This document shows positions 14,866 through 14,950 of a stretch of 64,000 nucleotides of DNA, one piece after another; position 1 is the stretch's first letter; every line of letters starts with the position of its first letter. Under the pieces are notes generated by a model. That model was not told where the DNA came from and made no database searches. It saw only the letters and a program-made list of their open reading frames with translations. Origin of the DNA: a virus (lineage: Duplodnaviria; Caudoviricetes); the IMG/VR virus record IMGVR_UViG_3300035498_000844, positions 1 through 64,000 of that record; one strand, 5' to 3'. Both the position numbers and the translations under genes were made by a program.

Positions 14866-14950
14866 ACTGCCTAGTAAGATTTGAACTTACATTAGTCTAT
14901 CTTCACAAAATTGTATCTTCAAACTGTTTTACCTTTTAAACTATAGGCAG
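14866..14950 (-). ncRNA. tRNA-Lys-like RNA with a 20-nt anticodon loop
   Basis: CTGCCTA/TAGGCAG, GTTT-AAAAGGTA-AAAC, GTTTG-(20 nt)-TAGAC, GTAAG-TTCAAAT-CTTAC. Confidence 0.8.

Follow-up and report, generated by a model that had tools for sequence, protein, structure and literature searches.

A non-decoding relative of tRNA-Lys in a phage early operon and its possible role as an RNA processing handle

An 85-nt element on the minus strand of a phage genome is, by its sequence, a relative of the neighboring tRNA-Lys(UUU) gene. Its pairing appears to be maintained even though a folding model prefers another fold, and its anticodon loop of 20 nt should prevent it from decoding. The element occupies one slot of a module that recurs behind early genes of related phages, where the acceptor/T-arm half of a tRNA precedes a short trailer. 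The explanation that we favor is that the element is a disabled copy of tRNA-Lys that is kept as a handle for RNase P and RNase Z. Such a handle would punctuate an operon transcript and release a trailer RNA and tRNA-Lys. We judge this reading about equally apt to prove right or wrong.

The element lies in a window of 64 kb, which is the whole stretch of DNA analyzed and forms part of a 73.8-kb IMG/VR record estimated to be 56% complete. The phage is tailed and encodes a terminase, a portal protein, a sigma factor and a SleB-type cell-wall hydrolase (Hydrolase_2). Its G+C content is ∼30%, and its ribosome-binding sites are strong and purine-rich. The strong Shine-Dalgarno sites and the SleB-type hydrolase, the only two pointers to the host, suggest that the host belongs to the Bacillota. 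Relatives of this virus are phages of 130–145 kb from rumen and gut metagenomes, and these carry 13–28 tRNA genes each. The features of the transcription unit and the parts of the 85-nt element are collected in Table 1.

Table 1. Features of the transcription unit and parts of the 85-nt element, by position in the window
Feature	Position	Strand	Remarks
Promoter of the transcription unit	15411..15439	minus	TTGACA-17-TATAAT; 12/12 consensus matches
Early gene, 127 aa	14975..15358	minus	Weak, sub-threshold winged-helix matches; multi-copy paralog family
GC hairpin	14952..14968	minus	GGGGGGCGAAAGCCCCC; between stop codon and 85-nt tRNA-like element
85-nt cloverleaf, apparently derived from tRNA-Lys	14866..14950	minus	20-nt anticodon loop at 14900-14919; discriminator U at 14866; CCA not encoded
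Acceptor stem of 85-nt element	14950-14944 / 14873-14867	minus	7 bp; CUGCCUA / UAGGCAG
D arm of 85-nt element		minus	GUUU-AAAAGGUA-AAAC; D loop contains GG
Anticodon stem of 85-nt element		minus	GUUUG / UAGAC; 5 bp, two of them G.U
Anticodon loop of 85-nt element	14919-14900	minus	AAGA-UACA-AUUU-UGUG-AAGA; inner helix of 4 pairs, one U.G
Variable region of 85-nt element		minus	UAAU; 4 nt
T arm of 85-nt element		minus	GUAAG-UUCAAAU-CUUAC
Trailer 1	14808..14865	minus	AU-rich spacer; CCUCCUUUCC at 14832-14841; hairpin GGGACUUUUUAGUCCC at 14813-14828 without U tract
Canonical tRNA-Lys(UUU)	14735..14807	minus	ARAGORN and Rfam; 73.7 bits
Second tRNA-like element, 112 nt	14616..14727	minus	Perfect acceptor stem and T arm; long AU-rich hairpin in D region; between tRNA-Lys and trailer 2
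Trailer 2	14545..14615	minus	Spacer ∼80% like that of trailer 1; CCUCCUUUCC (CCTCCTTTC match at 14584-14592); terminator-like hairpin at 14557-14582
Promoter of the next gene	14511..14539	minus	Perfect consensus; gene at 14059-14487, minus strand

The 85-nt element and its kinship with tRNA-Lys

A first-pass annotation of this DNA had described a tRNA-like element with a 20-nt anticodon loop, and we recovered it at the same position as a cloverleaf that scores 44.8 bits against the Rfam tRNA model RF00005 (gathering score 29). The match has an E-value of 2.5e-7 when 6 kb are searched and of 2.7e-6 when the search covers the whole window. Each of the four stems pairs throughout, and the Rfam threshold for a cloverleaf is passed. 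The departure from a normal tRNA is found in the anticodon arm, at a place for which the Rfam model expects 13 nt and the element has 26. Both the helix within the loop and the discriminator U are present as the annotation described them. The element has no 7-nt anticodon loop, no U33 and no readable anticodon, and its loop begins with AAGA. Since the loop is 20 nt long and lacks U33, the element is predicted to be unable to decode, which agrees with the earlier claim.

A tRNA gene finder gave a divided answer. ARAGORN does not call the element at its default settings, but when introns are allowed it reports tRNA-Phe(gaa) with a 13-nt insert at position 34. This call raises the question of whether the element could be a working tRNA gene whose 13-nt intron is spliced out to yield tRNA-Phe(GAA) or tRNA-Ile(GAU). 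One splice register does give A-U-GAA-G-A, and related phages carry a tRNA with a 741-nt intron. However, 13 nt is far below the size of a self-splicing intron, the core of which requires ∼200 nt or more. The arm forms a symmetric 4x4 internal loop and a 4-bp helix, with no 3-nt bulges and no bulge-helix-bulge motif, and the phage looks bacterial from its Hydrolase_2 protein, sigma factor and Shine-Dalgarno sites. In addition, no register gives Y32-U33-NNN-R37 with a good loop, a discriminator U together with G37 is unfit for a bacterial tRNA-Phe, and a search of Rfam matched no intron family. We therefore give splicing almost no weight.

The kinship with the neighboring tRNA-Lys that the annotation proposed is well borne out by the acceptor stem. 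The two RNAs have 13 of 14 acceptor-stem bases in common. When different tRNAs of the same genome were paired in related phages, only 2 of the 2176 pairs reached an acceptor identity of at least 13. The tRNA-Lys(UUU) gene lies 58 nt downstream of the element. Across all comparable positions, ∼26% differ between the two. These differences include a single change in the acceptor stem (G7.U66 to A7-U66), one double change in the D stem, three double changes in the T stem, and three double and two single changes in the anticodon stem. The compensatory changes that had been claimed for the stems are thus true double changes in the D and T stems, whereas the acceptor stem has only the single replacement of G.U by A-U.

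The earlier claim that all stems were kept paired held up fully. Because 21 of 21 stem pairs are intact even though 10 of them differ from tRNA-Lys, seven through changes on both sides, the stems appear to have been maintained. This view must be set against the result of nearest-neighbor folding, which prefers a non-cloverleaf structure with GUUUGAA paired to the T loop (–18.1 versus –15.9 kcal/mol for the cloverleaf). The preferred fold breaks the T arm, and the T-arm pairs of the cloverleaf have a predicted probability of ∼9%.

No relatives of the loop were found in the collections searched. Exact-pattern scans of IMG/VR with the D-arm region and with the loop GAAGATACANNNNTGTGAAGA returned only chance matches within coding sequence, and none is a homolog of the loop. 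When the 85 nt were compared by BLAST with 20 related phage records, all matches were the size of a T arm, and the best of them (in G001/G002) is to a different, 70-nt tRNA-like element. A search of a phage collection returned only a weak tRNA-Lys match to Lak phages. The 20-nt loop is carried by no other IMG/VR record and so has no comparative support. We also considered whether the loop arose by tandem duplication. There are two occurrences of GAAGAUA, and the 16-nt units match at 12 of 16 positions, but we estimate that this is not significant after multiple testing, and removal of one unit would leave a loop of 4 nt.

Several other unusual tRNAs are present in the window and in related phages. 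A tRNA scaffold with a 59-nt anticodon loop (Rfam, 43.7 bits) is located at 2076-2201 of the window (minus strand). In its counterpart in G005/G006 (6539-6661 of L137; 9512-9634 of L138, minus strand) all stems differ, and the loop is clearly homologous (AUAAA.AAAA..GGAUU...AUCC...UUUUUU.UAAAGG.A). For this RNA the insert is conserved and the scaffold is not, which is the opposite of the pattern of the 85-nt element. Only 2 nt away, at 2204-2291 of the window (minus strand), is a 90-nt tRNA whose loop reads CUUAUAA (anticodon UAU). Its anticodon stem is weak and contains tandem G.A mismatches, and its variable arm is long. The partner gene in G005/G006 (L137, 6664-6789) resembles tRNA-Leu(UAA) and has 41 nt inserted before the anticodon arm.

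Among the related loci, ARAGORN reports a tRNA-Asn with a 741-nt insert in L114 (1852-2668, minus strand; G001) and in L115 (G002), as would be expected of a group I intron that carries a homing endonuclease; positions 1-397 of the window may be compared. L114 also holds, at ∼1496-1566 on the minus strand (match at G001:2768-2791), the 70-nt tRNA-like element, which has a perfect acceptor stem (UGCUCUU/AAGAGCA) and is not called by ARAGORN. Its T arm is the same as that of the 85-nt element (GUAAG-UUCAAAU-CUUAC), its anticodon stem has 4 bp, and its loop reads UUUAUUA. Finally, ARAGORN reports four-base anticodons, tgtg and tatg, at 12754-12831 of L137 and 2102-2179 of L138 (G005 and G006), which correspond to 8-nt anticodon loops.

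A module shared by related phages

The 85-nt element is part of a compact unit in which the promoter is followed by the 127-aa gene, the GC hairpin, the 85-nt element, trailer 1, tRNA-Lys, the 112-nt element, trailer 2 and the promoter of the next gene. Trailer 1, at ∼58 nt, fills the gap between the last base of the tRNA-like element and the first base of tRNA-Lys. A terminator-like hairpin is found only after trailer 2, and no U tract follows trailer 1. Hairpins similar to GGGGGGCGAAAGCCCCC are present in four related loci or genomes (L159, L285, L336 and G020). The T arm of the 112-nt element differs from that of the 85-nt element by two compensated pairs and by nothing else. Perfect-consensus promoters of the form TTGACA-17-TGnTATAAT precede each small early gene of the region (13939, 14539, 15439 and 15672; window 13900-15800 and beyond).

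To find related loci, we used homology to the 127-aa protein or its downstream neighbor, together with a box scan of related records. The 127-aa gene family has several paralogs per phage. A search of IMG/VR with the 127-aa protein alone found nothing, and an alignment of the paralogs was needed to find the loci. The coding sequence for the conserved C-terminal KKKAFFSL of this paralog family is a near-palindrome, AAGAAGAAAGCTTTCTTC.

Many of these paralogs are followed by the same arrangement, and at least 14 related loci share its layout. The 3′ region of the early gene holds a GC hairpin, a tRNA-Lys or tRNA-like element, an AU-rich spacer of 20–25 nt, the box CCUCCUUUC(C/U), a hairpin or terminator, and the next promoter. 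The window fits this layout, with the box and hairpin of trailer 1 as listed in Table 1 and a spacer of 24 nt between the 85-nt element and the box. The tRNA slot is filled in different ways. A normal tRNA-Lys(UUU) with a trailer is present in five loci (L159, L285, L336, L345 and L352). Three others have good acceptor and T arms with scrambled bodies (G020/L154, G010/L165 and G012/L167). A third form, of 40–60 nt, consists only of an acceptor stem and a T arm joined by 8–28 nt (L156, L284, L286-289, L313, L315 and L329).

The link between box and tRNA-like half was examined with 21 CCTCCTTT boxes from loci that were chosen by protein homology regardless of RNA structure, with spacers of 12–39 nt allowed. 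A perfect 7-bp acceptor stem and 5-bp T stem with a TTCRANN loop are found upstream of 12 of the 21 boxes, compared with 0 of 6300 shuffles. Spacers in the 12 positive cases measure 18–26 nt. Among 15 distinct top halves, from elements of 40–112 nt in total, pairing holds in 176 of the 180 cells that the 12 top-half pairs make up, a count that is partly circular since some instances were detected by their pairing; the test of the 21 boxes is the noncircular one. Each acceptor position shows three to six pair types across the 15 instances, and the bodies vary from 8 to 80 nt. Matches from a broad pattern scan that were part of a following tRNA, terminator stems or GGCTATAAGCC-type elements were left out of the family.

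The trailers also belong together. Twenty-four of them align with a common spacer, box and hairpin. In nearly all, a U is found no more than two bases from the discriminator, and no CCA is encoded in those that are syntenic. A comparison of the trailers with Rfam matched no family. The module family thus keeps the acceptor/T-arm half and the trailer, and does not keep the D or anticodon arms. We read the 20-nt loop as a lineage-specific remodeling of a part that the family does not need. In the literature, our coverage of which is incomplete, we came across no account of a module like this one in phages.

Three further observations were made. In another set of phages from IMG/VR (L188, L190, L253, L256, L259 and L274), tRNAs that encode CCA are followed by CCUCCUUUC and then by a recurring GGCTATAAGCC-type motif, which constitutes a different trailer family. 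The slot element of G010 (L165 ∼1439-1521, minus strand) has a perfect 5-bp stem and a 7-nt loop, UGCUAGC, which would give a CUA (amber) anticodon, but its position 33 is G. The opposite strand was also considered, with GGAAAGGAGG as a Shine-Dalgarno sequence for mini-ORFs of 1–5 codons. This was rejected: the starts are ATT, ATA or ATG, nothing conserved is encoded, and there is no downstream gene on that strand.

The family pattern bears on whether the 85-nt element is a neutral relic, that is, a recently disabled duplicate of tRNA-Lys that has no function and is decaying. Such a history would account for a loop that is a singleton, for the rejection by ARAGORN at default settings, and for a predicted ensemble that favors a fold other than the cloverleaf, and a functional tRNA-Lys is located only 58 nt away. 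It is harder to reconcile with 21 intact stem pairs, seven reached through double changes, after ∼26% of positions have changed. In relatives, the acceptor/T-arm half in this slot stays perfect even where everything else has been lost, which is unlike decay. Decay is thus unlikely in our estimation, although far from negligible. The assertion in the first-pass annotation that the element is not a decaying pseudogene is accordingly favored by the maintained pairs and the family-wide top half, while the singleton loop and the ambiguous fold count against it.

Processing of the transcript and alternative functions

The reading that we prefer for this pattern is that a duplicated phage tRNA-Lys lost decoding and was kept as a tRNA-shaped processing handle. 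Transcription from the promoter at 15439 would produce one RNA that extends from the early gene through trailer 2 and its terminator. Host RNase P would then cut at the 5′ end of the 85-nt element, and RNase Z would cut 3′ of its discriminator. These cuts would separate an mRNA ending in the GC hairpin from a trailer RNA of ∼58 nt with defined ends. In the phage of the window, trailer 1 would be cut on both sides and tRNA-Lys would be freed as well. The released trailer would expose CCUCCUUUCC, for which purine-rich ribosome-binding sites are plausible pairing partners, those of the GGAAAGGA type in front of the phage's early genes among them. We infer the transcription, both cleavages and the action of the trailer from sequence features.

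These features are as follows. The 85-nt element combines a 12-bp acceptor/T stack with the T loop UUCAAAU, encodes no CCA, and has UUUU 3′ of its discriminator. A minihelix made of an acceptor stem and a T arm is a sufficient substrate for RNase P, RNase Z and the CCA-adding enzyme, and precursors that lack CCA are processed by the RNase Z of Bacillus. We read the tRNA-shaped elements as processing handles because the missing CCA and the early U of the trailer fit RNase Z, and because the acceptor/T-arm stack is a minimal substrate. Conservation across relatives is limited to what the processing enzymes need, with the top half kept (176/180, subject to the circularity noted above) and the bodies free to vary. 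The box CCUCCUUUCC/CCUCCUUUC is a copy of the 3′ tail of 16S rRNA, and several early genes of the phage have GGAAAGGA-type ribosome-binding sites. Predicted pairing of the trailer with purine-rich ribosome-binding sites ranges from –9 to –19 kcal/mol, but any Shine-Dalgarno site would pair, so that these values do not discriminate among targets.

Three considerations weigh against a handle. The perfect D and anticodon stems are not needed by a pure handle, and their retention may reflect either a recent copying and loss of decoding or a further role. In hosts of the Bacillota type, RNase J1 could rapidly destroy a trailer that carries a 5′ monophosphate. Lastly, the model-preferred fold, predicted to be more stable by the energies given above, breaks the T arm.

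A different arrangement is that the tRNA-like element and the trailer remain one unprocessed RNA. In that case the tRNA-shaped domain, rather like the tRNA-like domain of tmRNA, would dock the anti-Shine-Dalgarno-like tract on a tRNA-binding partner such as the ribosome, EF-Tu, a modification enzyme or a defense protein. The distance from the end of the tRNA-like part to the box is always 18–26 nt, and most tRNA-binding proteins recognize their ligands by the top half. However, the acceptor sequences are wholly different between instances, which does not indicate a sequence-specific partner. Cleavage by RNase Z fits both the lack of an encoded CCA and the run of U with which the trailer begins, and trailer 1 of the window directly abuts a real tRNA-Lys that needs to be excised. 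An intact fusion is therefore improbable in our view, more so than decay.

The first-pass annotation had instead suggested a decoy for anticodon nucleases or a ligand for the tRNA sensors RelA and T-boxes. A decoy or sponge for nucleases that attack tRNA-Lys (PrrC, RloC or PARIS AriB), or for other tRNA sensors, would be in keeping with the maintained stems, with the UUUU at the tip of the loop, and with derivation from tRNA-Lys, a known nuclease target (PMC11464382). However, the anticodon stem-loop that AriB recognizes is entirely changed, and the known phage countermeasure is a functional, resistant tRNA-Lys (PMC11464382). The loop is unlike that of tRNA-Lys and is conserved in no IMG/VR homolog, and the same slot in relatives holds bodies with no anticodon arm at all. 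The proposal is not borne out by these comparisons, and we consider a decoy very unlikely. The suggested sensor ligand fares no better. T-box and RelA sensing both require codon or specifier pairing, which this loop is unable to provide.

Mimicry of a bacterial Y RNA (YrlA) was considered and rejected. In Y RNA and YrlA the Ro-binding stem carries the RNA ends and the acceptor-like stem is closed, whereas the present RNA ends at its acceptor stem. No Rfam Y RNA match was obtained even at E values up to 10.

Known systems and implications

Regulatory RNAs that originate next to tRNAs have precedents. In E. coli, the 3′ external transcribed spacer of glyW-cysT-leuZ was reportedly described by Lalaouna and coworkers in 2015 as a regulatory RNA derived from a tRNA trailer. 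The leuZ trailer, which RNase E releases in a Gram-negative bacterium, is a sponge for small RNAs and is linked to a real tRNA. By analogy, the phage module would also yield a regulatory RNA from the trailer of a tRNA transcript. It differs in that its tRNA part may be vestigial and its box resembles the 16S rRNA tail.

The closest viral parallel among the systems compared involves the TMERs of MHV68, in which a viral tRNA-like element is fused to pre-miRNA hairpins that are released by tRNase Z (PMC4838037). Both systems place a virus-encoded, non-decoding tRNA-like element directly 5′ of a regulatory small RNA that is freed by host tRNA 3′ processing, a step that for the phage is proposed by analogy (PMC4838037). 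TMERs belong to a eukaryotic virus, their tRNA-like part serves as a Pol III promoter, and their cargo is a Dicer substrate (PMC4838037). In contrast, the phage module has a sigma-70-type promoter and a cargo composed of a pyrimidine box and a hairpin, and its cleavage is putative. A second eukaryotic parallel is MALAT1/mascRNA, in which a tRNA-like structure in the 3′ region is cut by RNase P and RNase Z (PMC8457004). As in MALAT1, the phage element is located in the 3′ region of a longer transcript, and an upstream stabilizing structure would become the new 3′ end (PMC8457004). MALAT1 differs in being a eukaryotic nuclear long non-coding RNA, and it is not known to carry a downstream cargo RNA.

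The trailers themselves resemble RsaE/RoxS, small C-rich RNAs by which Shine-Dalgarno sites are occluded in Bacillota (PMC6158497). Both have an unpaired C/U-rich motif before a terminator hairpin and the potential to pair with G-rich motifs of the Shine-Dalgarno type (PMC6158497). RsaE, however, has its own promoter and no link to a tRNA (PMC6158497). It has no sequence homology with the phage trailers, which matched no Rfam family. With respect to defense, the tRNA-Lys of phage T5 neutralizes PARIS as a functional, non-cleavable tRNA that replaces the cleaved host tRNA (PMC11464382). The 85-nt element is likewise a phage-encoded relative of tRNA-Lys with an altered anticodon stem-loop, but the T5 tRNA decodes and the 85-nt element cannot (PMC11464382). 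A counter-defense role of the T5 type can be fitted to the neighboring gene at 14735-14807 and not to the 85-nt element.

A broader proposal is that tRNA punctuation is the means by which these phages of gut and rumen produce small regulatory RNAs. Copies of tRNA-Lys that are now vestigial, cut down in some lineages to acceptor/T-arm helices of 40 nt and enlarged in the present case by the 20-nt loop, would attract RNase P and RNase Z of the host, and an RNA resembling the 16S rRNA tail would be cut from early-gene transcripts and mask ribosome-binding sites. We offer this extension tentatively and are inclined to doubt it more than the handle itself. For the single 85-nt element the gain in understanding is modest, since it is one member of the module with a lineage-specific loop. 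It does carry the caution that not every odd phage relative of tRNA-Lys is an anti-nuclease device. The series from a full tRNA to a minihelix would constitute a natural dissection of the needs of RNase P and RNase Z in vivo.

If the handle model is true, then phage tRNA-like "pseudogenes" that are dropped by annotation pipelines would be functional processing signals. Phages of Gram-positive-type hosts would be using host tRNA maturation to make small RNAs directed against ribosome-binding sites. If tRNA punctuation of this kind occurs, it would parallel, in bacterial viruses, the TMER pathway of herpesviruses, and engineered tRNA-guide-RNA arrays would have a natural equivalent.
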